Source: Bilabrum cf. latius
Lineage: Eukaryota
DNA length: 64,000 bases
Reading direction: 5' to 3'
Assembly (NCBI GenBank): GCA_965178125.1
Contig: OZ237765.1
Span: forward strand, 744,001-808,000
The notes beneath the pieces are model-generated. The model was not told where the DNA came from. It saw nothing but the letters and a program-made list of their open reading frames with translations, and made no database searches. The position numbers were made by a program, and so were the translations under genes. Positions 47 to 64,000 of this stretch are shown here, piece after piece (the stretch's first letter is position 1; every line of letters starts with the position of its first letter).

Positions 47-1846
47 ATGCAGACATTTCTGGAAGGCGAGCGATCTGCTGCCAAAGATGACTCGAACGCG
101 ACAAAAGCCGCGGCCGGGACGCATGCTGATACGCTGTCAAAGGTAAGCACCCGTACAGCTACTGTTGCTTCGGATGATAAAAACGATGGCAACGAAGAAA
201 CAGCGAGGGCGACACTGATGGCCCTTCTGCGGGCATCAGCCGCTGCAAGTGCAGGGGAAGAGCCGGATCCCATGGTGGACTGGCTTGTGTTTATATCATT
301 TGTCGGTAATGTATTTATATTGATCGCCAAGATCATCGTACTGGCGTTTAGCCTGACGTTGAGCGTGATTGGCAGCTCGCTAGACAGCTTGCTGGATATC
401 GCAGGTGGCGTGATCATCTATTTTTCCACCCGTGCTGCAAAGAAGACCTCGCTCCACGCGTTTCCAGCTGGGCGGGCTCGCGCCGAGCCGGTCGCGATCG
501 TGGTGCTCAGCGCGGTGATGGGGATGGCGGGCCTGCTGCTCGCACGAGAGGCAATCGCCTCTCTGGCAGCCGGTGCCCCGGACCGGGGCGAGGACGAGGG
601 CCCGGACATCCCTTCCCTGGCCGTGCTCGGCATCAATGTCGTGTACAAAGTCACCATGGCCTGGCTCTGCGGGGCCTACAAGGACGTCTCCCCCTCCATG
701 GGGGCCTTGGCGCAGGACCACTTCAACGACTGTCTCACCAACGGCGCGGCTATCCTAGCCGTCGGACTGGCCAGTGCCTACCCCGATCTGTGGGCGGCAG
801 ATCCCGCCTTTGCCATCCTGCTGGGCTGCTACATCATCTGGTCCTGGGTGCAGGAGGGCGCGGAGCAGGCCCGTCTGCTCATAGGCAAGGTGGCCAACCC
901 TGACGTGCTGCAGGAGCTCACCCGAGTGGCCTATTTCCATGACCCGAGGGTCCGCGCCATCGACTCCGTGGTCGCATTCCACGCAGGCACGCGTGTGACC
1001 GTGGAGGTCGACCTGCTGCTGGACCGAGGCATCCCGCTGCACGAGGCGCACGACATCGGGGAGGCCCTTCAGCTGAGGCTAGAGTCATTCGCAGAGGTAG
1101 AGAGGGCGTACGTGCACCTGGACTATGAGGTGGACCACAAACACAGCATGGCGCAGCTCGAGGCGGGGGCGGGGGGCGAGAGACACAGGGAGAAGAAGGG
1201 GGATGAGAAGGAGGACGACTAGGAGGAGGAGGTCGGCGGCAGCGTGGCTCCAAGGAGCGGCGGTTCAGACGGAGGATCTTCGGGTGGTGTGACGAGTGAC
1301 GGCGGGGGCGCTGCGGCTGCTTCGGCCCCACGATCGCGTGATGGTGGTACAGGAGAGTGCGGTAAAGGCCAGTAGGAGTAGAAAGAGGAGGAGGAGGGGG
1401 AGGGGGAGGGGGAGGGGGAGGAGGCAGTGGACGTGGAGGCAGGGGAGGTGAGAGCGAGAGTTGGGGCGGGGGTGGGGGTGGCAGTTGAGGGGAGGAGGGA
1501 GGGGGAGGGCGAGGCTGCGGGTGTGGAAGGCCAGGGGCAGGGGCTGGGGCTGGAATAGGAGGAATCGGAGGGTGGGGACGGGGCGTCCTCCGGTGGCAGC
1601 TCCCCCCGGGCCGTGCGGCGGCAGGGGTCGGGCGACCTGCGCAAGAGGCTGGGTGGGAGGGTGAGGTTGGGCGTGGGCGGGGGCTCGCCGCGGTCCATGG
1701 ACGGGACTAGCGGGACTGCGATGGGCCAGCTGGCCGAGCACGTGGTGAAGTAGCCGCAGTCGGGCAAGGAGCTCATGGGAGCGGGGGAGGTGGCTGCCAT
1801 GGAGGCGGAGCTGGAGAAGGCCTCGAGGACGACTCGGAGGGGGTGA
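47..1846 (+). CDS. Cation diffusion facilitator (Mn-CDF / MTP8-11-like metal tolerance protein) with acidic low-complexity C-terminal tail
   Basis: Motifs SSLDSLLD, QDHFND, HEAHDIGE and RAYVHLDYE plus hydrophobic TM segments. The frame continues through in-frame TAG at 1220, 1373, 1379, 1556 and 1751 to TGA 1844-1846. Confidence 0.9.
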
Positions 1847-2031
1847 ACGGGAAGGATTGCAAGGTGCTGCTGCTGCTACGCTGGGCTTCCGATTTCTGAG
1901 GGGGCTTCCAGGTCGCGTGCATGCGTGCGTTCTATTCTATAACTAGATCTAGAGTCGGCTATGGTTGCACTGCACTGTTGCTACGATACAATTTTTCGGC
2001 TTGGTACTGGGACAATTACGAATCTAACACC

Positions 2032-5000
2032 ATGGCAGCTTGCTGGGATTCAGTGGTTGAATTTGTTGAGGAGTCATGTTGCTGCTGCTGCTTTGGTGCT
2101 GGTACAGATTGCTGCCTACTCGTTTGCTTCAGGCCCTCGCACTGGCGCAGGGTTGTCGTTGCTCTGTTTCCCCCTACGGCTCTCGGAGGAGTCGAAGAGG
2201 GTTTGTCCCGCATTGTACGCTACAAGTCTGTTGTGGAATTTGCACAGGAGCGTACCTCCCACCTTGCCCTGTTAGGCCCAGAGCTTGAGACAAGGATCCG
2301 ACGATACGCTCGCCGAGGCTGCTTCGGGTACGTAGAGAGCGGATTTGCTGCCATTGATTCTATTATAATCAAACTCAGTGGAACACCGTCCGCGGCTCAA
2401 GCCCTCGGCGTGGCAGACTTTGGGGAGGACAGCGACGAGAATCAACAGTCGCCGTACGCAGGTCGCGGCGAGAGGGCTGGTGGAGCATCCAAAGACAGGC
2501 AAAGGGGCGGGGAGTTTAGTGCCAGAAACATCTCTACGAGGGGCAGTGGGCGCTCCGGCGGATCCTCCAAGTCTTATGACAGCTCATGGCTCCGTCTGGT
2601 CGACGTCAACTTCACCTCCTCCGCCTGCCTGGCCCTGGAGCACGCCCACCCCAGGGCTGTCAGCGCGGCGGCACACACGTGCGCGCTGTTATCTGCGCGC
2701 TTGAACCACCTGCTCGATCGGAACAGGCTCCAGCGATTCGCTGACGTCCTGCTGCCAGCCGCTGCCAAGGGCCTCGAGTGGGGCTCGATCTCGGGATCCG
2801 CGCCCTCTAACACGGTCGCACCGGGCGACGCCTCCACGCCGGAGCGGCAAGCCGCCATCGCCTGCGTCTCCGTGCTGGGCGCACTCAGGGTCGTGCTGGC
2901 CCGCGCGGATGCAGCCGCTCTTCGGAGACACGCGGGCTCCACGCTGCCAGTGCTCATGCGGCTGCTGCGGAACATGGCGGCCGCGGCCGGTGTGACGAGT
3001 AAATCAGGTCAATCGCAGATCACTCACGAGTCTCAAAATCACCGCACTGCGGTGCTCGGCGTACTGGGCGCCGTGTGCCTGTGCCTCAGGACCGCGGCCT
3101 CTGCCATCGACGCGAGCACGGGCGGGGCGGTGGCAGAAGCCGCCCTTAAAGAGGTGGGGGAGTGGGGATATGGGCCTGACGAGGCGGGGGTGGGGGCGGC
3201 TGCCCTGCGGCTGTTGGATCCCCAGGGGCTGGGGGGGAGGTGGAGGGGTGCTGCCTCGGGGGCGGCGATGGGGGTCTGGGGCATGGGCCCTGGGGATCCC
3301 AGCTAGGCCTCGCGTGCCTCTGGGGGTGGATCTGGCCCAGGACACTCGTCGTCGGTCGAGCCATCAAAAGGAACCGACGAGGACGAGGAGGACGAGGACG
3401 AGCCCACTGTTCCCCTCAGGATCGAGACACCGGGGCCGGGTCTCAAAGCCGCGCTGTCGGCACCCCGCGGGGAGCAGCAGCAGGCAGCAACCCTGCCGAG
3501 GCCCATGGGCGTGCTGCTGGCCGGGAAGGTGGGCAAATGGCTGGAGGAATACCCCCAGGTGAGGGTGCAGGGGAGCAAGGCCCCCACTGTGGGGTCAAGC
3601 ACCACCGGTCCGGACCGCAGCGCGCTCCTGGTTCTAGTGGGGCTGTGCCTGGGGTCATGCCGGGAGGCGAGGGCGAGGCAGCTGAGGGGGTTCGCCGCGG
3701 AGAGTGTAGGTCCTTTGGCGTTCCTGGCCATGGACGAGCCCTCTGGGGGAGGTGAAGGCGGAGGGGGTGATCGCGATGGATCCACGGGTGGATTAGGGGT
3801 CGGGCTGGCGGCTCTGGTGGCGCTCGAGAGCGAGTGCCTGGGAGCCACTGGATGGGGAGGGGGGGGGATGGGCCTGGATGGGGCTGGGGATTCCGGTGCT
3901 GTGAATGAGGGCAAGTGCAAGGGCGCTGGTAGGGCCTGGGAGCTCGTGTGTGGTGCAGTGCCCGGGGGCACGTCGGGCTTGATGCGCCTACAGCATGGTG
4001 CCGCCATCTCGCGCCATCCTGCGATCCATGAGGTGCGGGAAGACAGCAGGGGCAGTGAGAGCGGGTCTAGATCTGCATCTGAAGGTACTAGTGACGGTGA
4101 TCGTGCTGCAGGTAGGAAGGACAGCGAGTATGGCTCTCAGGTGCGCGAGGTCGGGCTGGAGTCTGGCTCGCTGTCCCGGGGGCTGGGCCTGGGCAAGGAG
4201 CACGGGCACGGGCATGGGTATGGCTCGTTCAGGATAGGGGGGGGTGCTTCTTCACCCGGTTAGTCGTATCGGAGTCAATCACGGGGGGCTATGCCGATGT
4301 GCAGTGCCATGCAGCGCGTGGGTCTAGAGGCGGTGCTCCGGCTTGCGTGGGCCTCCGGGGCAGAGGGCCAGTCGAGGGGGGCCCAGTCGGCGTGGGCGCT
4401 ATGCCAGGTGGTTGCAACCGAGGTGGCCGCTGTGCACTCCATGAGGCATTCCACAACTAGAGGGAGTGGCGGTGCAGGTGTGGCCGGCTTGGGGTCAGCG
4501 GGTGCATCGCACGATGCGTCGTACATGGATCGTTGGGGGGACGAGTGGACCCTGCTGCCAGGCACCCAGCCCGCATCTGAGGCACAAAGAGAGGCGGAGG
4601 GCAGCATGCACCGGGGAACAGCAGATGCGAGCGCTCCTGCGGTGGACGGGAAGCGACCACCCGGCCCCCCTCCACTGCCTGCTGCCCCTGCCCACCACGG
4701 CTCAGCCCCACCGCCGCCTCCTCCGCGCCCCCTCCCAAGCACCCGCCCACGATCCATGTCACTGTCAGGAGGCCAATGGGCCCGGCGGGCCTCCATGATG
4801 GGCAGGGTGTCTCGGGGCACTCGGTTGGAAGTAGGGGCTCCGAGTCCTGACGGGCCAAGAGTGACGGCCGTCAGCCTGCTGGGCGGAGGAAGCCGCAGTG
4901 GCAGTGGCAGGGGTATTGGCCAATCGGGGGAAGGGACGCGCGGCATGCATGCAAGGAGCCAGCAGCAGGAGAGGGAGGAACAGGAGGCAGAGCGACTCGA

Positions 5001-11335: not shown

Positions 11336-11800
11336 AGTGTGGCAAACCGGCAGGTGTGCGCTTTGATTGGGTCACATCATTGCCGCAAGCAGCGACGCTT
11401 GGCGCCGCGCGGATTAGCGGAACATAAACCTGAACGGTAAAGACGCGCGCAACGAGACAGTTTGAGCGTGGCTCTCAATTGAGTTTCCAACGCATAGCAT
11501 CGATGCAAAACCATCAATATAATCCCGCAGCTGGGCCCAGCGGGCAGACAGAAGGCAAGGCAACACGCACACGCGAGGACAACGACGACCGGTCGCAGCT
11601 TGTCTTCCAGTCCGCACGAAGCCATGCCCCGAGCACGACTGCAACTCCCTCGCACATTGCCGTGCCTCCCTCGCACATCGCGGCACTCGTCACACCAAAG
11701 AGCACCGGCACGCACCTGCACCGCCCCACCCCGCAAACCAAACTCCAACTCCCGACCAGACCGACCGCCCCCGCCCCACCCGCCATCACTCGTCACACCA

Positions 11801-12998
11801 TCAGTGCTCGTCGACCTCGTAGTAGCCGTCGTTCTCACCCGCCCCCGAGGCAGCCCCGCCCCTGCTCCCAGCCGAGCCCCCCATCACGTGGGCGGCGTAG
11901 TAGTACACGCCCACGATGGCAGCCCCCAGGAAGATGCCGCCGAAGAGGGCACCCACGATCTTACCCACGGGCATCGGGCCCCCGGGCACGCTGCAGTCCT
12001 TGCTGATGTACCCGTCGTCGCAGAAGCACCTGGGTGCTCCGAGGTCCGAGTCCATCCGGCAGATGCCCTGGTCGGCGCACGGCTTCCCGTCCGCGGCGAG
12101 GGGGCACTCGGCGGGACACCCGGCCGTGGACCCGATGATGGCCTCGTACTCGCAGTCCTGTTCCCCGGGCGCGGATGAGTTGCCCGCGTAGTGCTTGGGC
12201 AGGATGAAGAGGTCGTCCACCTGGCCCGTGGGGGGGAAGGCCCGCGAGTCGCAGATCATGCCGATCTCGAGCATCATCGTGTTGTACTGCGCTCCCTTGC
12301 ACGTCCCCGAAGTGGGGGTCTCGCCCCCCATGAAGTGAATCTTGTAGCCCTTGGTGGGGCGGTCGGGGTCGAACGCCCTGAAGGTGTAGGGCACGGTGAG
12401 CGTCTTGAAGTCCCCGCCCAGCACCACGCAGTGCGGCTTCCCTTGGGCTCCGTTCGCCCACATCAGAGCCATGGCGCCCTTCTGGGCAGGCGCATGCGCG
12501 GCACATGCAGGGGGCAATGGGTCGATGTTGCCGCACAGGTTGAACTCAAACATCCATTCCTTCAGGTCCAGCGAAGCGCCGCCGCCGGGTGAAGAAGGAT
12601 CGCTGGTAGTGTTGAATCCGTCCCTAGCTACCCAACTGCGAGGCCACATACTCCAGGAACGCGGTACACTGACAAGATATAGATGACACGGGATATCCCT
12701 GGCTGGCCACAGGGGAAGGAAGCAGCACAGCGAGTTGGCAAGCGTCAAGAAAAGGCCTCACGAAGTTGCAGAGTTCATCCCAGAAAAATCCCACGATGGG
12801 CCTGTTGCAGCATATTTCCAGTGACAATCACTGCGGTAGATTTACGATCCACAAAGGTATAAGATGAGTGTTGTGTGCATCCAAATCCGAAAGCTTTCTG
12901 CAAGCACCCGCACGTTCGAAGAAAACTGCTCACTTCTCAGGGGTTCCACCGAATGCGGCTGAAGCGAGTCCTAATACAACAAAAATGCTGGATCGCAT
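11801..12998 (-). CDS. Type I membrane protein: signal peptide, mannose-6-phosphate receptor homology (MRH/ATG27-like) domain, EGF-like domain, TM, Tyr/acidic tail (paralog A)
   Basis: Exons 12998-12934, 12830-12762 and 12635-11801 with phase-consistent GT-AG introns. Motifs FEFNLCG, IHFMGGE, CEYEAIIGSTAGCP and CFCDDGYISKDC; TM IVGALFGGIFLGAAIVGVYYY; tail GYYEVDEH. Ends TGA. Confidence 0.8.
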
Positions 12999-14770: not shown

Positions 14771-15205
14771 GCACTGTGACCTGTGGGGAGGTCGTGGGGC
14801 GTGTGACGAGTGGGAACTAGCTCGCCCATCCATTGCCTCCCCCGTGCTCTCTATCGTGTTGGTCCTGCCCGGCTGCCAATGACTGCTGGTGGGCGGGCGC
14901 GCTGAGTGTTTTTATTTCTGTGTGGTGGTGAAGGACTGGATGTGCGGCGGGGCACTTTCTCGGATCGCAGAGCGGGGGCAGCATGGAACGATGGCGTGGT
15001 TGGGTGGGTGGATGGCTGTCTGCTGCATCCTGTTACTGTGTGATGAGTGGGCCGCGGGGCCGCACGCGTCGCTGCCCAGGCCGTGTGCATTGCGTGGCGA
15101 CAACTCTGGAATGAACCACACACGCAAGTGCGCAAATGTCCATGTGCATGTTTAGCATGCGCAAAAGCCATTCAATCGCACACCATATATTGCACGCTTG
15201 CTACA

Positions 15206-16322: not shown

Positions 16323-16476
16323 ACAATGTGACACTTCTAATCTCTAGAGCCAATCCCTGTTTCTTTGGGCTACTGGACAAATAACAGTCGCGGTGCCTGC
16401 CTAGACCCATCCGGAGTCGCAGTATTTCCGATGCTTCGAAGCCACGTCTTCAGACGCCTTCACAGGCACATAAAGC

Positions 16477-17928: not shown

Positions 17929-18036
17929 TCTTGGCGTGTGCGGACGCCTTGGTGTGAGGCTCTTGCGCGTCACGTGTGTTTGCGGAACTGAATTAGCGCG
18001 GCGCCTAAAAGATCGAGGAGCATATTCTAATCGAAA

Positions 18037-25400: not shown

Positions 25401-28147
25401 CCGATGGATCTCCCGGGGGCAGCCAGGCGGGGGCGGGCCGTGGCGGCCTGGGACCCGGTGGTGTCGCTGGTGGCATAGATTTCGGGGAAGGGGTCAGCGG
25501 GCTGCGGCGGGCGGGGGCGGGGCTGAGCCTGCAGCGGCTGTGGTCCCTCTCCCAGCCCACACTCGTCACACTAGAAGCGCTGGAGCGGGCGCTGCGGACG
25601 GGCCTGGCGGCGGGTGCGCGCGGCGGGGCGGTGCTGGGTGCACTGCACGGTCTTGCCTCCGCGTCCGGGGACGAGACCTCCAGGGCCCTGGCGGAGCACC
25701 TGCTGCAGGCGGGCTCGGGCCCCTTCCTCCGCCAGCTGGAGGAGTGGGTGTACAGGGGCAGGCTGGACGACCCCGAGGGGGAGTTCTTCGTGCAAGGCGA
25801 CCCGGGCCAGAGGAGGGGGCGGCTGGGGACGGACCCCCACTGCTTGTACTGGGAATAGCGATTCCGGATCCGGGAGGAGGCTGTTCCCTCGTTCCTCAAG
25901 CGTGTGGCGGGGAAGGCCCTGGAGGCGGGCAAGTGCCTCCACGCTCTCAGGGGGTCGGTCCCCCCTGCGGCCGTGCTGCCGGGACTCGCTGGGCGCGCGT
26001 CCTCCTCGGCCTCCCAGATCTCCGGATCGGGTCACCGCCAGCAGCAGGCGAGGGCTGGTGCCTCTCACTCGTCACACCCTCTCGCGTGGGAGGAGGGGGG
26101 CGCGGAGGCCCCCGGGCTGCCGCGGGTGCTGCTTCAGGACCGGGCGAAGAGGAGGCGCAACCTGCGAGAGGGGCGCGGCGGGGGTGGGCAGAGTGGCGTT
26201 AGAGATGGAAGGGCCGCAGCCGGAGTGGTCAGTGCCCCGGGGGCTCGCACGGGACAGTCTCCGCAGGCACTCAGCGTATGCCCGCACGCCGCGCCCCTGC
26301 ACCTGGGCGCAGACGTGGGTCCCCTCGAGGCGGCCGTGGAGAGGGCGCACGAGTATGCCACCCGCGCGCTGGCCCGGTTCTTGCTGCTGGATGCACGCGT
26401 GATCGAATACCTCCGTGCAGTGAGGGGCTTGTTCCTCGGGTCCGAGGGGCAGTACCTCCTCGCATTCGCGGAGAGCGCCGCTGACGAGCTGGACAAGGAG
26501 GTGGCGGTGGGGGTGGGGGTGGGGGGTGGGGGCGAGGCAGGTGTGGAGGGGGATGGGGGGGATGGGGGGGAGATGCCGGGGGCGGGTGGGAGGCGCGGTG
26601 GGAGCGCAGCCATGGCGCAATCCGTCGGCGCCCTCCAGCGGGCAGCGGCACACGAGCAGAAGCACGTGTCGCAGTTCCGGCTGCAGTCCCTTCTGGACCT
26701 GGCGCTGAGAACCTCCTCTTCGGCGGCGGCTGGGGGGCTGGATGGGCGCCCGGGACGGGAGGCAGGGGCCGTGTCTGGGATCGGCTTGCTGGCGGACAGC
26801 GTGTCCTGCCGGCTGGAAGAGGCCCGCCTGACTGACGTGCTGCAGGCGCTCAAGCACAGCAAGCCAGTGGAGGGAGGGGACCAGGATGAAGAGGGCGAAG
26901 GGGGCGATGGGGAGGATCAGAGCGCCGGGTGGGGAGGGTGGCAGGCTGCAGGCGCCATCCAGAAAGCCGCCGAGGAGGCGGTGGAGGCAGTGGCGGCTGC
27001 CCGCGCGCTGCCCGACGGGCTGGCTGGGGATGGCACAGGGGGTCGCATCTCCGGGTCTGCCTCTGTGTCCTCCCGGTCCACCATGGGGGGGGGCGGCTCC
27101 ATCGGGGGCGGGAGCAGGGGGGGGTCCTTGTCCTCTGGCGGGGTTCGGAGGGCGGACACGGCCCTGATGGGCTTCGCGGCGATGTCCATGGAGCTCTCTG
27201 TTCCCTGGCCCTGGGCTCTGGTGCTGACTCAGCGGGAGCAGCTCAAGTACCAGATGCTGTTCCGGCACCTGTTTTTCTGCAGGCACGTGCAGCTGGCCCT
27301 GGGCAAGTCCTGGTTGGGCCTGCAGAGCTGCAAGGAGCTGGACCTACGGGCGGAGCTCACGCATGCACACATGGTGCGGCAGCGGATGTCCCACTTCTTG
27401 CACAACCTGCTTCTCTTTATGACGGGAGAGAGCGTGGAGCCCAGGTGGCACGCCTTCGAGGAGGAAGCACGTGCGGCAGGCAGCGTGGATCAGCTGAGGC
27501 GCGCCCACGGGAGTTTCCTGGACGGCTGCCTGCACGACTGCCTGCTGACTGCGCCTGACCTGCTGCGGCCCTTGACCAAGCTGGTGACGCTGTGCCTGCT
27601 GTTCGCCAACCGCATGGCGCAGGACGTGGAGAGGCATCGCCCCGACGAGGAGGAGGTCAGCAGGGAGGCGGGGCTGGGGACTCCGCTGGCAGCGGCGAGG
27701 CGCAAGAGGAGGCGGGAGCTCACGGCGCACGGGTCCTTCCGGGGCTTGGGGAGGGGAGAGGGCGATGGGGGTGAGGAGGGGGAGGCGAGGCGCCTGACGA
27801 GGGAGGAGAGGGTGCGGGCGATGAAGACCAGGAAGAGGGCGGCGAGACTGAGGCTCATGGAGGACCGCACTCGTCACACCATGCTGCAGCAGGGGTGGCA
27901 GGTGATGGTGCACAAGAGCCAGCGGCTGTTCGACGAGCTGCTGCGGCAGTTCATGGCGCGGCTGATAGCCAGGGCGGAGGGGCTCACCGTGGGCAACCTG
28001 AACCTGGGGGCGGGGGCGGGGGCCGGGCTGGCGCTTGGAGGGGGCGCCACGCGGTCGCACGTGCAGCAACTGTGCATGCGGCTGGACTTCAACGGGTTTT
28101 ACTCGAAGAAACTGAACCTGAGGCTGGGCGGCGCCAGGCGGGATTGA
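22465..28147 (+). CDS. GCP2: Gamma-tubulin complex component 2 (GCP2/Spc97 family) with long N-terminal extension, ~1864 aa
   Basis: Exons 22465-22572 and 22661-28147. Motifs QEACLVQDLL, LEEWVYRGRLDDPEGEFF, YWE*RF, PSFL, KYQMLFRHLFFCRHV and LCMRLDFNGFY. In-frame TAG at 22664, 22922, 23522, 24035, 24248 and 25856. Ends TGA. Confidence 0.88.
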
Positions 28148-30119: not shown

Positions 30120-30152
<33 letters not shown>

Positions 30153-31584: not shown

Positions 31585-33531
31585 ATGCATGCAGTTGGGC
31601 AAGCGTCTGCCGGTTCTGTTCGCTTAGTCAGTACGTAGGGTAAATTTGCACCAGGCTCGCGGGTTAGGTTCTCCGTCCCTCCAGACATAGCAGTCTCCAG
31701 ACGCCTCGCGAACAGCGCCGGCATCGGAGAAGTAGTGCTCAGCGAACGGAACAAGTCAGATCAAACGTGGATATATACAATTGGCAGTGCAACTTAGTGC
31801 TCCAATCTTCCTGGGCGCGCAGGAACCTTAGATGGAGTGCGAGAAGAATGGATAGAGCCCTGGTCTCGGCTGGATGAGGCTGCAGAGCGTCGAATTGCAG
31901 AGCTCCGAGAGACCCGACGTGCTTTCGACACCTGGATGATAGGCAATGAAGTGTCTGACACCTATGATGCCACATGCAGTGCTGTTGGGGCATCGCTACA
32001 GCGGAGCGACCGAGCTAGGAGGAAGCGCAAGCTGCCGAAAAAAAAGAGAGCCCCCGCTTCCGCATTCGGTGCCGCCATACTTTGGAAACAGGCAGGCGCA
32101 TCTCTGTTTCGCAATGCAGATATGCACGGCGCAGACGCTATGTTTGCTTTGGCCCTCAGGGAGCTGCAGCCGCTGGTGGACCCCTCCCTCGCGGATGAGC
32201 CCGCAGCAGGTCTGCTTGGGGCCGGTGCGACGGTGCTGGTACGCTGCGGCAGGAGACGAGCACCCAAAAAGGATAAGAAAGAGGTCGATGCTCCCGACGA
32301 TGCTGCGAGTCCGACAGGAATCGACGAGCGGGACGGGGACGAGGAGGCTGCGTGGCTGGCTGCCGTGGGGGGTGGCCCGGGGCCTGGTGTGGGCGAGGGG
32401 GCCACTCCCACTGCCAGCAAAGGTCAGGAGACAGGGCTCACCGCAGAGGGGGGCACAGAGGGAGGGGATGCACGCGCCAGCGGTATTGGGTCAGCTGGCT
32501 TTGAAGGGGTCGACTGGGAGGACGGGGCCGATGAGAGATGCAGCTGTGCCTTGGTGCTGCAGGGGGCACGTGCCTGGGTCCCTGCCATGGTGGGGCTCGT
32601 GGACCCCGATGAGGGGACGTGTGACGCGTGCGTGGACCCCATGCCCCTGAGGAGAGCAACCCTAGCGGCTGCTTCTCACTCTCTTGCCTCCTCTTCCCCG
32701 GCTGCTACCGCCGTGCCATCTGGGGCCCCTTCGCACGGCCCATCCCCTTCGCAAGCCAAAGCGGCGGCCTGGCTCACCCACAAGCAGGCAGCCGCCCTGG
32801 CCAAACCGGCCACTGAGCTAGACCGGGGCACTGGCCTGGAGCCCAGGGAATGGGTGCTGCAGGCGTGTGGCCGCGTGGACGAGGCAGGGGAAGCGGGTGA
32901 CCTGGACGGGGTGTCCCTGGGCCGACTCATGGCCCTTCCGAAGCTCGACGACCCAGCGGCGGCAGCATCCGGTGTGACGAGTGAGGCAGACGCTGACCCG
33001 AACCGTCTGCAGGGCCTGGTGGCGTCCCTGGCCCTGAACCGAGCCAAGTGTCACCTGCGAGTGCTGGACCAGGCCCAGAGGGCGGGGGCACAGCTGGACC
33101 CCGACGGTGGGCTGGCGAGCCGCACTGCGGTGGAGTCTGCGACACTGGCTGCCGCGTTGCTGTCCATGCAGGTGCCCCCGGAGAGTGATGGTCCCTGGGA
33201 CTGCCGGGCGGGAGGCTCTGGTGCCGGTGCGTGGGGCAAGCTGGGGTCGTGCTACTACGTGCGAGCCCGCGTGCTCACTCACTGGGGCAAGGTAGAGCTG
33301 GCACAGATCGACCTCAAGAGAGCAGAGCTGCTGATCCCCGCGGGATCCAAAGCGGCCGCGCAGCTACAGGTGGCCAAAGAGGCGCTGCAAGCCAAGAAGG
33401 CCAGTCGCAAGAAACAAGACCGAGCTCTGGCCAAGAGCATGGGGAGGTGGATCAAGCAGCAGATGGAGGAGGTGGAGGGACAGAGCGACGCACAAGGGGC
33501 TGGGTCAGGGGCTGCTGTGCCCTTTGGGTGA
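31585..33531 (+). CDS. TPR-containing protein with possible N-terminal SH3/Tudor-like domain
   Basis: Open from ATG 31585 through TAG at 31636 and 31795. TPR-like segments WKQAGASLFRNAD, SLALNRAKCHL and CYYVRARVLTHWGKVELAQIDLKRA. Ends TGA. Confidence 0.65.
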
Positions 33532-37157: not shown

Positions 37158-37188
<31 letters not shown>

Positions 37189-44177: not shown

Positions 44178-44294
44178 CTTGATGCTAAGACTGCTGCAGC
44201 GTTGTGGCGGCACAGATGGACTTGAAGCAAGTTCCGGTCCACGAAAATCGAACCAGTCATGTCGCAGTGATCGCGCCAGCATGATAGTGAAGCT

Positions 44295-47200
44295 ATGATC
44301 AGGCCAGGCCAGCATCTGCTATCACAACCTCACCATACCTAGCCACCCGGTACCGGAATATCCGCGGCAGCTAGGGTTGCATTCGCTGAGGTTGACGTTC
44401 GTAGAGATAGCTTTGCATGGTCTGTCACACAGAACTCGGTCACAGAGTTCAGGGCCCCTGTACATACATCAACATGTAGCAAGTGCGTGGAATGGGTAGC
44501 CTAGATTGGACTGCTGGCTTGGTTGCAGCAGCAGCACGGCGGCGCGAGGCGCATCTGCGTCGCATGCAGCGATCCCTCGGAGGCACAGGACGTGTTCGAT
44601 TCTCTATTAAGAAGGTCAAGCATGCCAGGATCTTGCATTTCTGGCAGTAGCGTTCGCCATCTGGTGGACGCGGTTCCCGTTGCTGAGGGTCGTTGCTTGG
44701 AGCGCAGGCTGGCAGCTGCAAGCAGTGCTAGGGCAACAGCAGGAACCCTGATCACTTCACGTGCCCCTGTCTCTCTAGAAGACACTATTGAAGTGACGAC
44801 CGCAGAGTCCGTCCGCCGCACTCTGCTTGTCGATCCCAGTTTGGGCTCGTGGGGCGTGCTGCTGCTGCCCTCCTGGTCCAAGAGGACGCGGGCACAGGCC
44901 ACCCTGCTCGCATGGACCAGGCTGCTCACTCGTCACACCAGGCGGCACGATCTACGAGTGGCGGTCCTAGAGTCACATTACGCAGAAGACCCGCTCCCCA
45001 CTGGTGCACCGCCAGACTCAGCCTCCGGCATGCAGGTGGTGCTCCATGGGAAGGAGGCCGGTGCCCCCTCTGTGTTTCCGTCCGCTGGCATGCACAAGCA
45101 TCACGCCGCATTGTCGGGTGCATTAGAGCCCACGGAGCACCCCGGCATGTTCGTGATGAAAGAACGAGAACAGAGCAGGCCGGCTGCACCAAGCAGCGTG
45201 AATGGTACTGCAACTGGCAGCAGCACTGCACTCGTCACACGGGGTGCAACACGATCATCATCAACAGCAGGGGCCGTAATGATCCGTGCCAGTGCGGAAC
45301 CTGCTCTCAGTACGTACTGGAGGTAGCCATCTCAGCTTGAGCTGAAGCTGGGGCTCGTGCACGGAGCGAGCAGAGCCGGCAGTGATGGTGGTGCAGGGGT
45401 CGGTACCACTGGAACGACTGGCAGCACTAGAAGCAGCACTGATCATGCGTCTGAGCCGAGGCCTGCTGTGGATATGCGGATAGAAGCAACGTCCGTATCA
45501 CGCAAGCGAAAAAGGTCCAGGTGGGGACCTGCTGCCCCTGGCCCTGCCCCTGCCCCTGCGCCTAATCCTGCACCCGGCATACCCCCAGCCAGCCTCAACT
45601 GGCCCCCAGCAGCTCCTCCCGCAGTTGGCAGCTACGGGCTGGTCACATGCACCCCGCCGGCCCTGCCTCCGCACCGTGACGAGTGCTTCCTGTCGCAGCC
45701 CCTGGGGTAGAGAGCACAGGGGGGGCTGGCAGAGGCGGCCGCGGGTGCGGCGCTGCAGTGGCTGGAGGAGGTACAGGGGCACGGGGCAGGTACAGGGGCA
45801 GGGGCAGGGGCAAGTGAAGGGGCGGTTGTGGTGCTGCTGCCCACTGCGGCGGAGGTGAGGGAGTGCAGCGCACTGCTGCGTCGAGTGGGGACTGCCAGCA
45901 TGGAGGGCACCAAGGTAGTCGAGGTGCTGGGACCCAGTCAGTCGCAGGCCAGGGGCAGGGCACTTGGTGCAGTGCGCAGACTGGGCCAAACCGCCGTCAT
46001 CGTGGCATGCGGCGGAGCAGAGGCGATCGCATGGCTCCCACCACAGGACATTGCGTGCCTGGTGGACTCGGGGCGTGAGGCGGTGCTTCAGGAGGGAGCC
46101 AAGGAACAAGTGGTCCCTGTGGTGGCCGTTGTTCCCTGTGGCCGCGCGGAGGTGTTCGAGCGCTCTTCCCTGGTGGGCCCCGGGCGTGGGCGGCGGGGGC
46201 GCGCGGGCGACTGGCGCGTGCTGTTGTCCCGCGGGGAATTGCGAGGCATGGCCAGCGGCCGACCTCCTGCCTGGGTGCGCCGCCCCGACCCGCTGGCCAT
46301 GGGACTGCAGCTGGTCCTTACGCCTGCTGATTTCATCCCCATGGACAAAACAGAAGAAGGGGCCCGGTCCTCGGGGAACAAACCGGGGGGCTTGTGTGCT
46401 CTTGGTGGGCTAGAGCTGCCGGGGACACAACCGCCAGCCGGACTGCTTCAGGCTGCATGGCGTGAGCTGGGCCGGTGGGGGGCCGTGCCTGCGGATGGGA
46501 AGGCTGTGCTGCATCCGGTGGGCAGAGCCATGCTGCGGCTGCCTGTTCCTCTGCCCGAGGCCTGTCTCTTGCTGGCTGGGGCAAGGTCCGAGCTGGGTGC
46601 GGGCGGGGCGGGGCGAGCTGTGCTGGGGGCGGTGTGCCTTGCTGCTGCGGCACGAGAGTGCGGAGGCGTGTGGACAGCGGCAGCAGCAGGTGGTCTGGGT
46701 GGCGATGGGGAGCTGCGGGGTGTGGCGAGGACGCCCGTTCCACCGAGACTGCAGGGGGGGAGGGGCGGCGGTGGTACTGGCGGCAGGCGTGGGTTTGGCA
46801 GGGGCAGGGGCAGGGGCAGGGGCAGATTCGGCAGGGGCTCTGATCACAGGGGTGCGCGGGGGAGGCAGTCAGGCATCGTGGGAGAGGAGGAGGACGACGA
46901 GGAAGAGACGGGCAGCGGCCTTCTGGACGGAACAAGGTATATCTCGCAGAGCGGGGACATCGGCACGCTGGGGGCTCTCTGGAGCGAGTGGGAGAGCATG
47001 GAGGCACACTCGTCACAGTAGAGCCAAAGGTCATCCAAGCGGGCGGGCCGATGGTGCCGGGAGTACGGCCTCATGCAAAACACCTTCCTGCGGGCTGCCT
47101 CGCTGGTACAGGTGCTGCAAGAGGGGCTGGCGGCTGCCGTGCGAGCCGAGCTGCAGGCTGCGGCACCGCCCGGCACGTGGATGCACCGCATGCCAGCTCA

Positions 47201-48704: not shown

Positions 48705-51700
48705 TCACATCCCGAGGGTGAACTGCTCCACTGGCTGCGGCGGTGCCACGGGCAGCCCCACCCCTTGCAAGAGGTGCGCCAGCGGCCCCTTGAGGTCCCG
48801 CATAGCCGCGCACTCGTCCGTCAGCTCTCCCGTGGCCTTGTCCATTGCGTGCAGGAGGGCGAGGATGGCGGTGGGGGGTCGCATGCGTGCAGCCCCGGCC
48901 AGCTCCGAAGCTGCCAACCGGGCTGCCCTTCCGCCCCCATACCCGCTGCCCAGCCGCTGCACCCGCTCTCGCTCTCCCTCTGGCACTGCCTGCATCGCGA
49001 GAGCCCACTGCGCCAGCCGGGCATCAACCAGCCCCCGGGCCCAGTCAAGCGCCCTCCCCAGACCGGGAGCCCCCTTGGACGGCAATCCCCACGGTCCCAC
49101 CCTCGCTCTCGTCCCCGCAGACGCCCCGGAGTGTCCTGCCTCCTCATCCTCCTTGCCCTCGCCTCGGCCGGCACCTGATCGTGCTGCCTGTTTGACTACT
49201 CCCAGGGCAGCAGCCGCGTCTCCCCACCGCAGGAGACCCCCCGCCGACCTGTGCGCCGCCGCCCCCACCAGCACCTGCCCCTCCGTGGCACTCAGCGCCC
49301 TGAGAGCGCCCTGCACCGCGCCCGACCGCCGGTCCCGCCTCTCTCCCGCCGTCCGCTTCCCAGGAGCCGCTGCCTCCCGCAGCAGACAAGCCGCGGCGGA
49401 GGACCCGTCGGCCCCGCTGCCTGCTGCAGGTGACCCGCTCGCCCTCGCCACCTTGACCAGTCTGGTCAGCACACCGGCGAGTCCCACCGCAAGCGGATCG
49501 GGCAGCCCCGTCCCCGCCAGCGCGGCGTGCAGCAGCAGGTCGTTCCTCTCGAGAGACACCGCCAGTCCCACGGCGTGCTCCACAGCCCGCCGCACCGCCT
49601 CCCGTCCCACCGGAATATCGTCCTCGGGAACACCCCGCGCAGTGCACTGCATCTTGCAGAACAGCTCCAGGGGCCCCCTAGTCGCTGTGTCCACGGGCAG
49701 CAGCCGGTGCGTGCTGCTGGCCAGCCGAGCCTGGAGGTCCATCCCACGGGTGCGGGTCCTCGGGTTGGATCCACCGATGAGACCAGCGCCGGCGGCATCC
49801 TCTTCATCCGAGTCGCTGTCGCTGTCCTCCTCACTCTCATCTTCATCCTCATCGTCCTCATCGCCATCCTCCATGCCAGCTTGTGCCCCGGACCCCCTCT
49901 TTGTCCCGACCTCCGCCCCTGCCAGCTCAGCACCGGCCAGCGCCAGCACAACCGCCACGCATCGCACAACAGCTGACTCGCTCACGTCCCGCACCCCTTC
50001 CAGAACACCGCATGCGCATTCAACCCACGCGCAAGCCAGCTGCGCCCGGAGGTCTCCTCCCTTCTGCCCCTCCTCTGCCCCTGCACTCCACAGCCCAGCT
50101 GGCATGCGAGCCACAGCCGCCAGCATGCCCCCCCGCCTCGCCTCCCCATCTGACAAGCACCCAGAAGCAGCCACGCGCGCAGCAGCCCGCACTGCATTGA
50201 CACAGGCCCGCAGACATGGAACGGTGGGCGACGGTGCGCCGGCTTCCATAGCAGCAGCCGCGCCCACCGCGTCAAGCACGCGAGTCACGGCCCGGGCGGC
50301 CGCCACGCGATCGGCAGACCCCGCCTGCGCCAGCGCACACGAAGAGGCAGGGCTGACAGCTTCTGAACCCGCAGTAGACTCAGCGGAAGATGCGCTGTCT
50401 GAGCGACTCCGCCGGCGGCCCCTGCCACCAGCTTTACCACTACCTTTGCCCTTGCTGTTGCTTTGCTCGTCGGCAGCCGCATCCTCCGCAGCAGCAGGCT
50501 CCACAAGCGCTTGCAACGCTTGCGTGGCGGCTTTCAGGGGTGTGACGAGCGAGCCTCCGACGGCCCCAGACCGCGCCGCGGCTCCAGCCTTCTCGAGCGC
50601 AGTTCTGCTGACCTCTGATGCTGCCAGCACTCTAGCCCGTGCAGCAGCGGCGGCCTCCTCGAGGCCAGCTCGGGCTGCTACGCTGGCTGCGTCGTGGGAC
50701 GGCGCGAGCGCAGCAGCCGCGAGGGCGCCTGCTACTGGCACCACAACAGAGGTGCCGATGGAAGGCGCCGCGATGGCTGCCAGAGGGCCAGCCCCTAACA
50801 CCGGTCGCAACCGCCGGCTGGTCCTCGCGCCGGCGCTGCCAACTGCATCAGCGAGAGTGGGGATGCGCGGCAAGGCCTGCGCCACCGCCACCTGGTTGCC
50901 TACACATAGACACACGTGGCACCCGTTGGGCCCCTGCTGGGATGCGCCCACCTGCAGCGCATGCAACGAACCAGTGGGCGCACCCTCGCTCTTGCCCTTT
51001 GATGCATCCCCTGTACCATCTCCCTCTCCCTCTTGCTTCCAGCTGGTGGATCCAAGCAGCACGCCTCGTTCTGCGTCCCACACGCCCAGCTCCGTGCCCT
51101 TGCCGTCCGCACCCACATGGGCCAGCAGCAAGGTCCGCGGCTCGAGGCTGAACGCAGCGGCGCCACCTCGCCCCTCCCCCACTACCTCCGCATCACCCCT
51201 TTCGGCAGCTTGCAGCCGGGGCAGCTTGCCCACGACGCCGACAGAGGGCGCGTGGCTGTACCACCCAGGCATCAGCCGGAACCTGTGCTGGGTCCACAGC
51301 CCGCTACCCCAGAACAGGGACAGGCACAGCATCTGCTTGTGGAAGCAGCCGGCCAGCACGCGATTGTCGGCAGCAGCGCCACTGCCGCTGGAGGCCTCTG
51401 CTGCCATGGGCTGCAGCGCGTGTCTCAGCGAGAGGCTAATTGAGGCAGAGCCCACTTCCCCTCCAGCCGCCGCTGACTCCTATGGCTAGACGTCATACAC
51501 GAGCAGCTCGGGCCCGGCGCCCCTGTGCTCCTAGTCGCCCTCGCCCTCGTCGTCTCCGTCGGTTGCCGACCCAGTATCGCTGCCCTTGCTGCCCCTGCCG
51601 CGAGACGAGCTGCGAGTCTTCCGGGTCTTGCGAGGCTTGGGCCCCTTAGGCACGGCAGTGGGCTGCACCACGACCAGCAGCACGTGCTGGCCAGCAGCCC

Positions 51701-52314
51701 TCCCCTTGAGGCTCACCAGCCGGCTCCACACCACGCGGCTGCCCGGAGTCCCGCCCACGCCTGCCTGAGTTACCCGCAGGGGGGCTCCAGCCGCGCCTCG
51801 CTGACGAGCTGCCACGAGGCTGGTGGAGCCGTCCCGATGCAGGAGAACCACAGGGCAGCGCTCCGTGGTGGAGGGGCACAGCACGGACGACACGGGAGTA
51901 GTGACGTCCAAAGTGGACGCATCGCGGAGTGTGGAGTGGCGTTCGTCCCACGCTAGAACCTTGGAACCATCCACAACGGCCATAAATTGCCGAGACCTCG
52001 CATGAAGGATGGCTGGCGCCGTGAAGCAAGTGCCGGTGCCGGCGTCCAGCGACCAGGACATGACGCACCGCCTTTCAGACGCCTACGAGGGAGAAGCGAT
52101 GATGCACGTAAATAAAGTGCCAATGATTCTGATCTGCGAGGTACTGATCTGCACCAAGGTCTTGCAAAGCGCGTAGTCTCACGTGGTAGACACGAACATG
52201 GGCTGTGCTTGTCAAGACCGGGAGCAGAGCGGCACTTGAAGCATTGACGCTGGCCCAGCTCTGTCCAACGATAGAATGGCTCTCTTGCAGCTGGCTTAAC
52301 GAACCAATCTCCAT
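48705..52314 (-). CDS. NOL11: Nucleolar protein 11 (NOL11/Utp8)-like
   Basis: Exons 52314-52183 and 52082-48705. VRVYHASERRCVMSWSLDAGTGTCFTAPAI...VVDGSKVLAWDE resembles the NOL11 N-terminus; C-terminus VEQFTL. In-frame TAG at 51531, 51486 and 51480. Ends TGA. Confidence 0.6.
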
Positions 52315-59687: not shown

Positions 59688-62600
59688 TTACGTACTGCCC
59701 GTCCTTGCGACCGACTCTGCACCGAGGTGGCGTGACTGCTGCGCGTACCGCGCTGCGACCCACAGGGTCAAGCTAGCACTCCACAGTATCCCCAGCATGG
59801 ACAGCACTAGTGGCCCGCCCACTAGTATGCCCCGCTCCCACAGCCACAGCCTTGCGTCAAGCAACTCTCGCGCGGGCGACTCGTGCCGCGCAACCGCGCA
59901 GAACCCGGCAGAGGCCGGGTCCTGCATCGAGGTGCACCAACCGCCCAGCGAAAGCGCAGCAAAGAGGCCGAGATCCTCGAGCAGCCGCACCGCAATAGAC
60001 TGCACCCGCACTCGGCCCACCCACTCTTGCACGGGATTTGTGGCCCACCCAGCCAAGCCACCAGTACCCCCCAGCAGCATGAGCATGTGGCTGGGCCCCG
60101 CGTCCCACGCAAGCAGCGACACCAACCGCATGGCTACTATGGAGCTCTTGCTCGGGGTCTTTGCGCGGGCAAGAGGCAACCAATGCCCATCGATCAAGTG
60201 CTATCGACTACTGGTTTCCCCGCTGCTCCGGACTCTGTTGTACTACATGCTCTTGCCGGAAGCGGCCGACGGGTGTGCCATCAACGCGTCGGCTCGATCA
60301 TGCTTGTACGCTTGCTCCTACGCGTGTACCAGCTCCGCGACACAGTCCGTCTGTGGCTCGAGCGAGCCTCCGGAGCTGTCCATCGACTGCACCATTGGCC
60401 CCGTGTCCACAGCGAGAATGCACCCGCCCGCAACCTGGCTGTGCACGCGCATGTCCGACTCGGAGGGCGCACCACTGCTACGTAGGCGACTCGATGGGAC
60501 CACCGGACTGGCGCCTGAGTCCAGGGCTGCCGCTCCGGTGTTTGGATGCTGTGGTAGGAAATGCAACGAGTCAGTTCCAGCGTGAAAGCTTCGTGGGGAG
60601 TTCCTGCCCTGCATGGCTAGTCGGTATTTCGGGCCCGACTGCGCCGCGGGATGAATCGCGGTGAGCTGTGCATCGCTTGCAAATCGGCTCCCTTGCCCAA
60701 GCAGCTCGATCAGCATGCTCGTGGCATCGTGTCCCATGCAAGTCAGTATAGCTCTGCAAGCCCCGCCCAACCCAGCAGCTACCACCAGAACAGCTCCCGC
60801 CCCTGACAGATCGGCAGCGATAAGGGATAAGGCCAGCAGGATGTACCCCATGGCGCGAGCGACACCCGCCGCTGCTATCAAGTCAAGAGTACATACTAGC
60901 GAGACATCAGAGCTGCCGACCCCCTGCCCACCGCTGCTATCCTGATCCTCCCCTAGGAGCACACTAGATAGCCCTGCAGGGTCTTTGTCCACCATGCAAA
61001 AGCTTTGATGCACGCACTGCCCTACCGCCCCCACGACGCACAGCAACCCTACAGCCACGGTGCACCATGCCCAGGGAGAGGCGCTCAGCTGCGCTGCAGG
61101 ACACCTGTCCCACCTGCTGGCAGACCCCTCGCGCAGGCAAGGCAGCCGCACTTCAAGCCGCGCGCTGGATGCGTTCACAACTGGTAGCCACACGCCTCCC
61201 GGCAGCTGACCAGCTCGCAATAGCCGCACGAGACGCTGCGCCAGAGCCCCGGCGCTGCGAGTCCTCTGCTGCGGCACCCCGAGAACCTGCACTGCGGGCA
61301 GAGGCCTGAGTCTGACCTTGACGTCAATCTCCATGCGGATCACGGGCGGGTGCACCGAGGGTTGCAGCTTGGTCAGGCTCTGCTGGCTTGAGGCGGCTTC
61401 GGGTCGATCGGTGGGCAAGTCGCCGATGGGCCATTGCGGTGGATGTGCTCTGATGCCCATGATGAGGGGCTCAATACGGCGAGTGTCGAGGGAGACGTTC
61501 CTGCCCTGGTCTGCGTCCCACTCCCCCAAAAGATCTGCGATGTCAGCGCCTAGCTCCGCGGAGAGATGGTGCAGCTGGTCTGGGCTCGGCTCGGGATATT
61601 GCAGCCCCGGTGGTGCAGCGGGCTAGGGGGTCATGACCTGGGCTTGCGGCCACATATTTCGGTCGAAGTCGAGCGTGAAGTGCACCAGGGCAGTGCTGGA
61701 CTGCTCCCTCTGGGCCCATGCGGCAGAAAATGACAGCTCAACGCCTTTGCCCCGGTCGTTGACACACGTCAGTGTATGCTCGGCCCCATTGTGTGAGGCT
61801 GTAGCTCCATTCACAGGCAGGGGCGGTGACCCCGACCAGGCTGAAGACCACACCCTCGACACCGAGGCAGCCATGGCCCACCCGGTTGGTCTACCTGTGG
61901 GACTCGGTTCCATCACCAGGTCGACGGGCACATGGTCGGGATCATTGCACTTTGCCCTGCACACGGGTCGATACTAGAAGGCACCGATCAAAGACGTGTC
62001 GTTGCACTCCCATCCTCCCCCATTCACGACGGGCAGCTGCTGCAGCGCGGCCCCTGGGATTATGCGATCTAGCCGTACCCCCCTATACCTGGCGAATGGT
62101 CCTATCAGCGGAGATATCATCTCCTATGGCAGGGACCAAGCAGGTGACACCGGATCTTGGAGCGGTGTCGCGCTGCCATTCAGCGATGGGCTGGCTCGAG
62201 GTCCACGAAGGCGAGATATAGGCGGGCGCCAGGCACCGTGGGATGGAGGGTATGCCCTGCGGAACTCGCCGCCTATGGTCACTGCTCGCGTGGAAGTGGC
62301 CGCGGGATAGTCAAAGTGCACCAGATCTATGTTATACTCGCTGGTATTCACTGAGTATAGAGAAGCGCAGCCCAATTTGCCAGCCCTGCGCCAGGCAGGC
62401 AGGGCCTTCTGAGCGTCCATCCAGGACTACGACGCGGCGCTGATGGCGGATTGGCTCCATTGCAATTTGTTATCGAAAGAATGATCGTTAGTGCCTGCCC
62501 CTAGGGCGACAGTGGGGGAACAGTTCCTGGCCTGCACGCAGGAGGGGTCGTCCAGCAGCACGATGGCAGCGACCAGGACCGGCTCAGTGCCCCCCTTCTC

Positions 62601-64000
62601 GCTGCTGCAGACCACGGTGCTGGCTTCAAGGGAGTGGCCGATGTCCATGGTGGGCACGGTGTCCATCATGGTTTGCGTCACGGGCACGCGGTTGAGGCGC
62701 CATGGGTAGCCTGTCTGCGGGTATCCCAGGTGCAGCAGTCTGGAGCCGTTGGTGGGCAGCACGGCCACCGTGCCCGGAGGATAGGTCACCGACACCACCT
62801 GGTGCCAGCGATTGCCCTGATGAGCAATATGTTCCTGCTGGGATCCCCCTCTGAAGCTGAAATACTACTCCACGACCCCCACCGCAGTGGTGGCCTGTGC
62901 CACTGCGTAGTCTTGCTCGAACACAGACCGGTTGGCGAGGGATGGCCCTGTGTGCGGGATCAAGGGACATGCACCGGGCGATACAGCCCCATGGTCTGCA
63001 CTGGCAAACATGCCCCGACCTGGGTCTTCCCACTGAGGGGGCCACAGTGTGGCCTGTCTGCAAGTGTCGTTCGGTGCGATGGGCACGTCCATGGGGGTGC
63101 ACCTCGGGGAGTACAGCGCCCTGGGGCACACGGTGTGATGAGTGAACAGCCGAGGCTGTCTCATGTATCCGTATGTATTCAAGTCCACCTGTGTCCCTGC
63201 AGAGTAGTCCCTGTACACACGCGGCGATGTGAGGGGCTGCTGCGGGACGGGGCTCCAAGGCCGCTCTGACTCCCCGAGCCCGATGATGCCAGGCCACTGG
63301 TAGTAGCCAGCCGTGATCAAGCCGCCCGTGATGTGGTTGTCGGAGCTGCTAGGCTGTCGGAACTGAAAGAACCACTGCTCTTCCGTCCATGGCTCGACGC
63401 TGCGGGTCGGCGGGAACAGGGCGGACCGGCTTGTGGTGCAAGCAACAGCCAGTGCCGGCGGTTCTTGGGCGGTAGCTGCGGCTGGCGTGTACCCCTTATC
63501 GGCCGCCATTGTGGCAAAATTTAATATTTTGAGGGGGTTCCTAGCACTGACACCATTGGCTCGTGCTAACTGTCCCTCTGGACCTGCGCTCCAATTCCAC
63601 CGCATCGTAGCTTGATTTCGAATGGAGCCTGACCAGGGTTGCTGTACGACATCGCAGCCAAGCCCAATGTTCTGCTCCATGCTTTCGTTGTAATGGATGA
63701 TTCGCGAAGAACGAACAGCCGCCGGGCCAGTTCCTGTTGCATTAGCTGGCCAGGCTGCTCGCCACAATGCTGCTTGCCAGTGGGTCAATCGGGAACGATT
63801 ACAACGGGATGCAACGAGTAAGAAAATGACCAGCTTCGTTCGATTGATTACTTCTCATGGTATTGTTAGTCTGTGTGCACTCACAATTGCACACGGGCTC
63901 GCTTTGCGAAGCGAAAGGCAGCAAAATACTCGCGCCTGCGTCTCGCATAGTCTCGATGGTCCTCGCATCACATCCCAGATGCAGCAGGATTGCAGCAAAG
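59688..64000 (-). CDS. Large membrane protein of unknown function (long ectodomain, several C-terminal TM segments); 5' end outside the window
   Basis: Partial exon 64000-63885, intron 63884-63770, then one frame to TAA 59688 with 8 in-frame TAG (62865, 62427, 62124, 61974, 61623, 60318, 60243, 60201). Confidence 0.6.

Follow-up and report, generated by a model that had tools for sequence, protein, structure and literature searches.

A sharply defined 12-nucleotide word written over genes and intergenic DNA in a GC-rich protist, a putative recognition site on duplex DNA

Sharp genome-wide words are known mainly from bacteria, e.g. the uptake sequences, Chi and HIP1, and each of these has exposed a dedicated machine; from eukaryotes such words are known in a few chromosome-recognition systems. 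The DNA uptake sequences (DUS) of Neisseria and the uptake signal sequences (USS) of the Pasteurellaceae are exact, non-palindromic 10-12-mers that occur on both strands, in genes in any frame as well as between genes, and they are over-represented by hundreds- to thousands-fold. Related species have the word in common while the sites turn over, close inverted pairs form terminators, and the accumulation is driven by uptake plus recombination. In C. elegans the ZIM/HIM-8 motifs of the pairing centres and the MEX/rex motif are 12-bp words bound by zinc fingers, with dedicated proteins and chromosome-scale functions. The dispersed sites of abundant binders such as Reb1, Abf1, Rap1, CTCF and Su(Hw) organise chromatin, and their orientation can matter locally. 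Sites of the CRE and M26 type, which are bound by basic leucine zipper (bZIP) proteins, read TGACGTCA and ATGACGT, and M26 works in coding DNA in either orientation. HIP1 (GCGATCGC) of cyanobacteria is described as hyper-abundant, with an abundance that suggests selection and a function that is still unknown (PMC5861425). Here we describe a further word, the 12-mer CACTCGTCACAC, that is dispersed through a 64-kb stretch of DNA from Bilabrum cf. latius (contig OZ237765.1, positions 744,001 to 808,000; the whole stretch is called the window below).

The CACTCGTCACAC feature is real and strongly non-random; it is conserved in its lineage and it is written over genes. The window holds ten exact copies against 0.01 expected from dinucleotide shuffles, none of 100 of which reaches ten, and the over-representation is about 1000-fold. 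An earlier note made from the letters of this DNA, the original prediction, had given these ten copies with their strands and the same expectation, and all are recovered here. If one mismatch is allowed there are 16 sites against 0.38 expected, with a shuffle maximum of three. Five of the one-mismatch copies (2990, 15038, 47007, 50540 and 63133) had been listed before, a sixth, at 32619(-), had been missed, and a core reported at 7646 is part of a two-mismatch site, TACTCGTCACAT, that starts at 7645. With tandem repeats set aside, CACTCGTCACAC is the commonest dispersed complex 12-mer of the window.

With the motif masked, Markov models fitted to the window (order 0 to 6) predict 0.001-0.008 copies. 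Synonymous-codon shuffles were made in two sets of open reading frames (ORFs). In 30.8 kb of standard-code ORFs (1000 shuffles) four exact copies are observed against 0.008 and eight sites with up to one mismatch against 0.43. In the 52 kb of stop-to-stop ORFs that are obtained when TAG is read as a sense codon (TAG-read ORFs; 2000 shuffles), seven exact copies are observed against 0.017 and a maximum of one. These TAG-read ORFs, which hold seven of the ten exact copies, cover up to 81% of the window and set an upper bound on its coding sequence. Since the enrichment survives both the Markov and the codon-shuffle nulls, it does not come from composition, codon usage or encoded peptides. The enrichment that had been claimed thus persists under high-order Markov and codon-aware models, and it is not confined to the window, as two exact copies are found in a related contig, L001. 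As a control, 117 viral loci (313 kb) were seeded with the 14-mer CACTCGTCACACCA; a second copy was found in none of the 117, which leaves chance matches only. CACTCGTCACAC and its complement turn up in nine papers; to judge by their titles and abstracts, neither of which contains the word, none of the nine is related, and the records retrieved on over-represented motifs in thraustochytrids or stramenopiles held nothing relevant.

The word is also sharp. Ten of the 16 sites are exact and six have one mismatch, although 36 one-mismatch variants are possible. The one-mismatch copies are themselves about 15-fold enriched in the window, and in two of the six the change is from CpG to CpA; nine sites in the window have two mismatches. 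The material examined is one 64-kb window and one 6.8-kb contig from a relative (71 kb together), and across the 18 sites with up to one mismatch in the two, all 12 positions are nearly invariant. The immediate flanks show weak preferences: of the 18 sites, 11 have C at -2, 14 have T or G at -1 and 12 have C at +13. Further out the flanks are unrelated and lack target-site duplications, and within 150 nt of the sites no second word rises above multiple-testing noise. The 16 sites of the window are as follows.

1287..1298 (-), exact, 65 nt beyond the TAG at 1220-1222 of the cation-efflux gene; with TAG as sense, inside ORF 2-1846, coding GVTSD, G-rich strand in the mRNA
2990..3001 (-), one mismatch, TACTCGTCACAC, within TAG-read ORF 1900-7932(+)
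11684..11695 (+), exact, 106 nt downstream of the TGA at 11801-11803 of the minus-strand ATG27/MRH-like plus EGF gene; mRNA sense GTGTGACGAGTG
11787..11798 (+), exact, 2 nt downstream of the same TGA (11801-11803) of the same minus-strand gene
14801..14812 (-), exact, 31 nt beyond the TAA at 14768-14770 of the plus-strand MRH-like paralogue, in the 3' untranslated region (UTR)
15038..15049 (-), one mismatch (CpG to CpA), CACTCATCACAC, in the 3' UTR shared with the 14801 copy
25560..25571 (+), exact, GCP2 N-terminal domain, codons ACA CTC GTC ACA C, coding TLVT
26066..26077 (+), exact, poorly conserved GCP2 linker, coding HSSH
27868..27879 (+), exact, GCP2 C-terminal domain, coding TRHT, over the conserved xHT of the homologues
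32619..32630 (-), one mismatch, CACGCGTCACAC, within ORF 31528-33531(+)
32972..32983 (-), exact, in ORF 31528-33531(+), coding GVTSE, G-rich strand in the mRNA
44927..44938 (+), exact, putative coding sequence, TAG-read ORF 44271-48611(+), coding score negative
45229..45240 (+), exact, putative coding sequence, TAG-read ORF 44271-48611(+), coding score negative
47007..47018 (+), one mismatch, CACTCGTCACAG, coding HSSQ, with an in-frame TAG directly after
50540..50551 (-), one mismatch, CGCTCGTCACAC, in ORF 48705-52178(-), C-rich strand in the mRNA
63133..63144 (-), one mismatch (CpG to CpA), CACTCATCACAC, putative coding sequence, TAG-read ORF 59688-63854(-), coding score negative

Well-supported coding sequence holds at least five of these sites, and there the word is independent of frame and of codon usage. 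In its C-rich sense it is read by the ORFs in frames 0, 1 and 2 (HSSH, TLVT or ALVT, TRHT), and in its G-rich sense as the peptide GVTS. The three copies in the single ORF of GCP2 use three different frames, which bears out the earlier view that they are no protein motif; a peptide motif is ruled out by the three frames, both orientations and the peptides TLVT, HSSH, TRHT and GVTS. In every frame the word requires rare codons, among them ACT and ACA (13% and 10% of Thr), CGT (6.7% of Arg) and TCA (5% of Ser). The word has not been inserted: the TRHT at 27868 aligns without a gap to the xHT of 12 GCP2 homologues found in an HMMER search.

The contig of the relative, L001 (6769 nt, 61% G+C), is metagenomic and was retrieved when such contigs were scanned with the C-terminal part of GCP2. 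It is syntenic with positions 24087-30356 of the window (blastn, eight blocks with 64-81% nucleotide identity) and carries its two exact copies at 4247(+) and 2380(-). Three window sites are covered by L001, and of these one is conserved, one is inverted in place and one is absent. The copy at 4247(+) is orthologous to that at 27868, with all five motif codons identical, the rare ACT and CGT included; over the whole aligned part of GCP2, identical amino acids have the same codon in 112 of 222 cases. The copy at 2380(-) and the window copy at 26066(+) lie immediately upstream of the conserved block AWEEGG, at the same place within 1 nt and on opposite strands, and, when read in the motif orientation, both are followed by C(C)TCT. 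This flip would be accounted for by an inversion of about 16 nt in place, or by recurrent gain of the word at a spot under selection. At the third site, 25560, L001 has the preferred codons ACG CTG GCG ACG in place of ACA CTC GTC ACA, again without a gap. Four more distant contigs that bear GCP2 (18.2 kb) have no site with up to two mismatches.

Since the word is shared with L001 while sites have been gained, lost or flipped, the alignment indicates that CACTCGTCACAC predates the split between the two organisms and that its single sites turn over, at least one of them being under synonymous constraint. The rare codons, the conserved synonymous sites and the in-place inversion support that part of the original prediction which saw a nucleic-acid-level signal written over coding sequence. 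Next to the flipped copy, 5 nt upstream of its start at 26066, two contigs of the public DNA run X2 have a boundary at 26061: they agree with the window to the right of it and differ to the left. Either an allelic difference or a match in low-complexity sequence could be the cause.

In this DNA TAG appears to be a sense codon, probably for glutamine, as judged from gene alignments. All nine of the single in-frame stops that were checked, each of which splits an otherwise continuous coding frame, are TAG:

In-frame TAG, plus strand: 3304, 4261, 5128, 19663, 25856, 47787 and 58039
In-frame TAG, minus strand: 8669 and 9347

Two of them align with a conserved Q in proteins of solved structure, the TAG of COQ8 with that of KIQYPG in COQ8B, and the TAG of GCP2, at 25856, with that of YWDQRY in a GCP2 chain; an RNA-like contig spans the latter unspliced. 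The match to CFAP91 grows from profile positions 83-153 (E 2.7e-05) to 3-153 of 153 (E 3.1e-40) when TAG is changed from stop to sense. In 5-aminolevulinate synthase the TAG falls at a variable position, where 16 homologues have S, T or N (11, 4 and 1, respectively). The 961-codon GCP2 frame of L001 (1653-4538) has four in-frame TAG codons, and the true stops in the window are TGA and TAA. The records retrieved on UAG reassignment in stramenopiles held nothing relevant. Should TAG indeed stand for glutamine, all gene models made for this organism with the standard code are truncated or split.

With TAG as sense, the copies at 1287, 44927, 45229, 47007 and 63133 fall within ORFs, and therefore several copies that lie after stop codons in the standard code move into probable coding sequence. 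The stops beside the copies at 1287 and 47007 are TAG, apparently sense here, and these copies may be coding. Coding scores are negative around 1287, 44927, 45229 and 63133. Other copies do lie where they had been reported, just 3' of the stops of both MRH-like genes, 2 nt after the TGA of the minus-strand gene and 31 nt after the TAA of the plus-strand gene. The 14801 copy is placed in a 3' UTR by a contig that ends further downstream, with 25 A at 15140. As a general rule the link to stop codons is weak: well-supported 3' UTRs hold only four of the 16 sites (11684, 11787, 14801 and 15038), each in one of the two MRH-like genes. A role for the TGA within the motif as an in-frame back-up stop was considered and dropped, as it is in frame at 14801 only, and a promoter role was dropped because the sites have no consistent nearness to gene starts.

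We tentatively read CACTCGTCACAC as a putative double-strand DNA recognition site of one very specific factor, kept by selection. The word, together with the weak flank preferences given above, would be read on double-stranded DNA, and the simplest candidate for the reader would be a protein with a footprint of about 12 bp, e.g. a four-finger zinc-finger array. Point substitutions would create the sites where they stand, at any place whose sequence tolerates them, conserved coding sequence and the cost in rare codons included. Selection for binding would then hold the sites exact, so that single sites are replaced over time and related species retain the word at a like density. Binding might serve chromosome architecture, gene-body regulation or some other end. 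We infer that the reader would act on DNA rather than on RNA, that it would be a protein, and that the sites would be maintained by selection rather than by a mutational drive. A duplex-DNA reader accounts for the orientation freedom at a conserved position, the equal use of coding and non-coding sequence, the override of codon preference and the persistence of the word despite the turnover of its sites.

Several observations sit less comfortably with a duplex-DNA reader. A 12-mer in which every position is invariant is unusual for a protein site, as the sites of transcription factors are usually degenerate. All eight adjacent pairs that are less than 2 kb apart in the window share orientation (2^-8 = 0.004, post hoc), and every window gene with two or three sites has all of them in one orientation. 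This suggests a strand-linked property that a purely orientation-free site does not predict, although the sole pair within 2 kb in L001 is discordant. All four well-supported 3' UTR sites put the G-rich strand in the mRNA. The base of the inference is the 64 kb and 6.8 kb only. Finally, a second sharp and dispersed 12-mer, GGCGCCGCGCAC, is also found in ORFs and kept in L001:

GGCGCCGCGCAC, exact: 7330(+), 24127(-), 25039(+), 35192(-) and 36482(+)
GGCGCCGCGCAC, one mismatch: 10556(-) and 10619(+)
GGCGCCGCGCAC in L001: 1344(+), exact, at the place of 25039 (GCP2 frame); 405(-), one mismatch, at the place of 24127

This second word often lies within 30 nt of GGTTCCGCA, and several of its sites are near the 5' ends of genes. 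Words like CACTCGTCACAC may therefore be ordinary cis-regulatory sites of this compact genome, which tempers the novelty.

The sites show mild clustering at short range, with five adjacent gaps below 510 nt against about 1.9 expected, and no clustering overall (15 pairs less than 4 kb apart against 15 expected). A recurrent spacing of about 1.75 kb (1703, 1778 and 1802 nt) was dropped, as about 0.85 such triples are expected by chance. The tightest spacing of copies is 103 nt, there is no head-to-tail tandem arrangement, and a tandem repeat or microsatellite is thereby ruled out. The idea that orientation follows the local GC skew is contradicted at 24-28 kb and at 44-48 kb.

The word might instead be spread by a sequence-specific repair, nicking or short-patch conversion process that turns near-matches into the exact word with no function for each site, much as in very-short-patch repair or in the uptake-driven accumulation of DUS and USS in bacteria. 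The sharpness of the word (10 exact copies exceed 6 one-mismatch copies) and its indifference to coding, with density alike inside and outside ORFs, keep this possibility alive, and it would fit as well the override of codon preference in the conserved domain at 25560 and the persistence of the word in L001 while individual sites turn over. That said, we regard such a drive as unlikely. The copy at 27868 and the position at 26066 have been kept between species, a better fit to constraint on single sites, and the roughly 15-fold enrichment of one-mismatch copies is what decay predicts, rather than efficient correction. To our knowledge, no 12-bp-specific repair system of this kind is known in eukaryotes. 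Selection and drive can be told apart directly from site turnover and polymorphism, given a whole genome.

A strand-specific RNA element, in which GUGUGACGAGUG or its complement would be bound in transcripts by an RNA-binding protein or a guide RNA, is to us a distinctly doubtful explanation. Genes with the word in opposite orientation would then have to show it in antisense transcripts. The G-rich strand of the four 3' UTR sites is in its favour, as are the single orientation within each gene that has two or three sites and the two MRH-like paralogues, only 25% identical, that each have two copies in the 3' UTR. Over all 16 sites, however, the sense strand is G-rich in eight and C-rich in eight, which does not describe a UTR element with one orientation. 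The in-place flip between 26066(+) and 2380(-) argues against a strand-specific RNA signal, and within the same gene the 27868 copy has not been inverted. No common fold was found: all eight contexts that were folded have z values between -0.71 and +1.48, with the word in differing structural settings, and searches for Rfam matches and for tRNA genes returned none of either. No antisense transcripts were seen among the public contigs, though these cannot show strand.

That the word is the relic of a mobile element, i.e. a terminal repeat, target site or excision footprint of a transposon, is very improbable and is already largely refuted. It begins with CACT, like the ends of CACTA-type elements, and, when reversed, has the TG...CA of long terminal repeats. 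The sites also form pairs of forward and reverse clusters 3-7 kb apart (11684/11787 with 14801/15038, 25560-27868 with 32619/32972, and 44927-47007 with 50540). What lies between the paired clusters, though, are ordinary conserved genes, GCP2 and argininosuccinate synthase among them, and L001 breaks the pairing. The unrelated flanks from which a transposon had been excluded in the original prediction are confirmed; the lack of target-site duplications and the gap-free alignments with the L001 orthologue and with the homologues also rule out a miniature inverted-repeat transposable element or an excision footprint. We found no point in support of chance, of an effect of base composition or codon usage, or of an assembly artefact, and these can be dismissed with near certainty, as every null model expects at most 0.05 copies, the contigs of four public runs show no differing letters and no indels against the window over 13300-33299, and the independent metagenome contig L001 carries the word.

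The window, which has a G+C content of 60-72%, comes from an organism that is likely a heterotrophic stramenopile, a placement drawn from one protein, 5-aminolevulinate synthase, whose closest named relatives are in Cafeteria (69%) and in oomycetes (59-64%). Over 13300-33299 the contigs of three public runs, which we guessed to be RNA, skip 88-362 nt with GT..AG or CT..AC ends; the DNA run X2 has no such skips. The contigs carry no strand, expression level or ends, and low cover over GCP2 was kept out of the evidence. The spliced skips, together with the contig end that carries 25 A, point to a eukaryote with few, short introns. Genes identified with Pfam and PDB are a cation-efflux transporter, GCP2, argininosuccinate synthase, COQ8, CFAP91, a p25-alpha protein, an RRM protein and two ATG27/MRH-like membrane proteins with EGF-like domains. 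The latter are paralogues that lie head-to-head, at 11801-12757(-) and 13490-14770(+), and each has the G-rich strand of its two 3' UTR copies in the mRNA. The Pfam match to ATG27 is weak (E 6.4e-05, under the curated cut-off and in one gene only), and therefore the label MRH is putative.

From about 8 kb onward the genes mostly alternate in strand, so that divergent promoters and convergent 3' ends follow one another, and the gaps at the convergent ends are very short, e.g. 28147/28193, 33531/33600, 48611/48705 and 55036/55138. Inside the TAG-read ORF 36577-42636(-) there are about five tandem copies of a 69-bp unit at 41259-41600, as well as long hexamer runs that code for (PA)n, (GA)n, (GE)n and (KSKG)n. 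Another minus-strand gene has two copies of a stretch of at least 70 nt, at 15737 and 17041 (-), 1.3 kb apart. An internal duplication is suggested by one RNA-like contig that steps back by 1310 at this place (from 16743 to 15434).

A 12-mer that is enriched about 1000-fold, overrides codon preference in conserved genes and is shared with a relative implies, by analogy with the machines behind the bacterial words, that a protist lineage which has been little studied has a reader just as dedicated. On a wider and speculative view, that we hold to be improbable, a lineage of GC-rich protists keeps an exact 12-mer like DUS or HIP1, at about one site per 4-6 kb in coding and non-coding DNA alike, through a sequence-specific drive (repair or conversion) or a chromosome-wide reader that forces rare codons and amino-acid changes into conserved genes. 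If true, this would be the first DUS- or HIP1-like genome word described in a eukaryote.

How, then, does CACTCGTCACAC compare with the known systems? Like DUS and USS it is an exact, over-represented 12-mer on both strands, inside and between genes, and it is shared with a relative, the one at hand, while its sites turn over. It differs in that it lacks closely spaced inverted pairs that form terminators, as opposite-strand copies in the window are at least 3 kb apart, and in that its host is a eukaryote, for which we know of no counterpart to a competence or uptake receptor or to a drive by uptake plus recombination. HIP1 is likewise a hyper-abundant short word; it is an 8-bp palindrome of bacteria, whereas CACTCGTCACAC has 12 bp and is asymmetric and eukaryotic. 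The 12-mers of C. elegans resemble it in shape, as eukaryotic, asymmetric and sharply defined words of about 12 bp with many dispersed copies, but they are concentrated in certain domains of the chromosomes and lie mainly outside coding sequence, while CACTCGTCACAC has its five or more sites in well-supported coding sequence. The sites of general regulatory factors and insulators are mainly in promoters or between genes and are more degenerate, and on inspection CACTCGTCACAC has no sequence likeness to those of Reb1, Abf1, Rap1, CTCF or Su(Hw). The half-site of a bZIP protein that had been suggested earlier is not supported: the pentamer TGACG is all that is common to CACTCGTCACAC and the CRE or M26 sites, the word differs from the palindrome TGACGTCA in that all ten exact copies read TGACGAGT, and 12 invariant positions go far beyond a bZIP half-site. 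By analogy, then, the behaviour of CACTCGTCACAC comes closest to the bacterial uptake sequences and HIP1, and its mechanism is likely to be closest to the zinc-finger words of C. elegans and to the sites of general regulatory factors and insulators.

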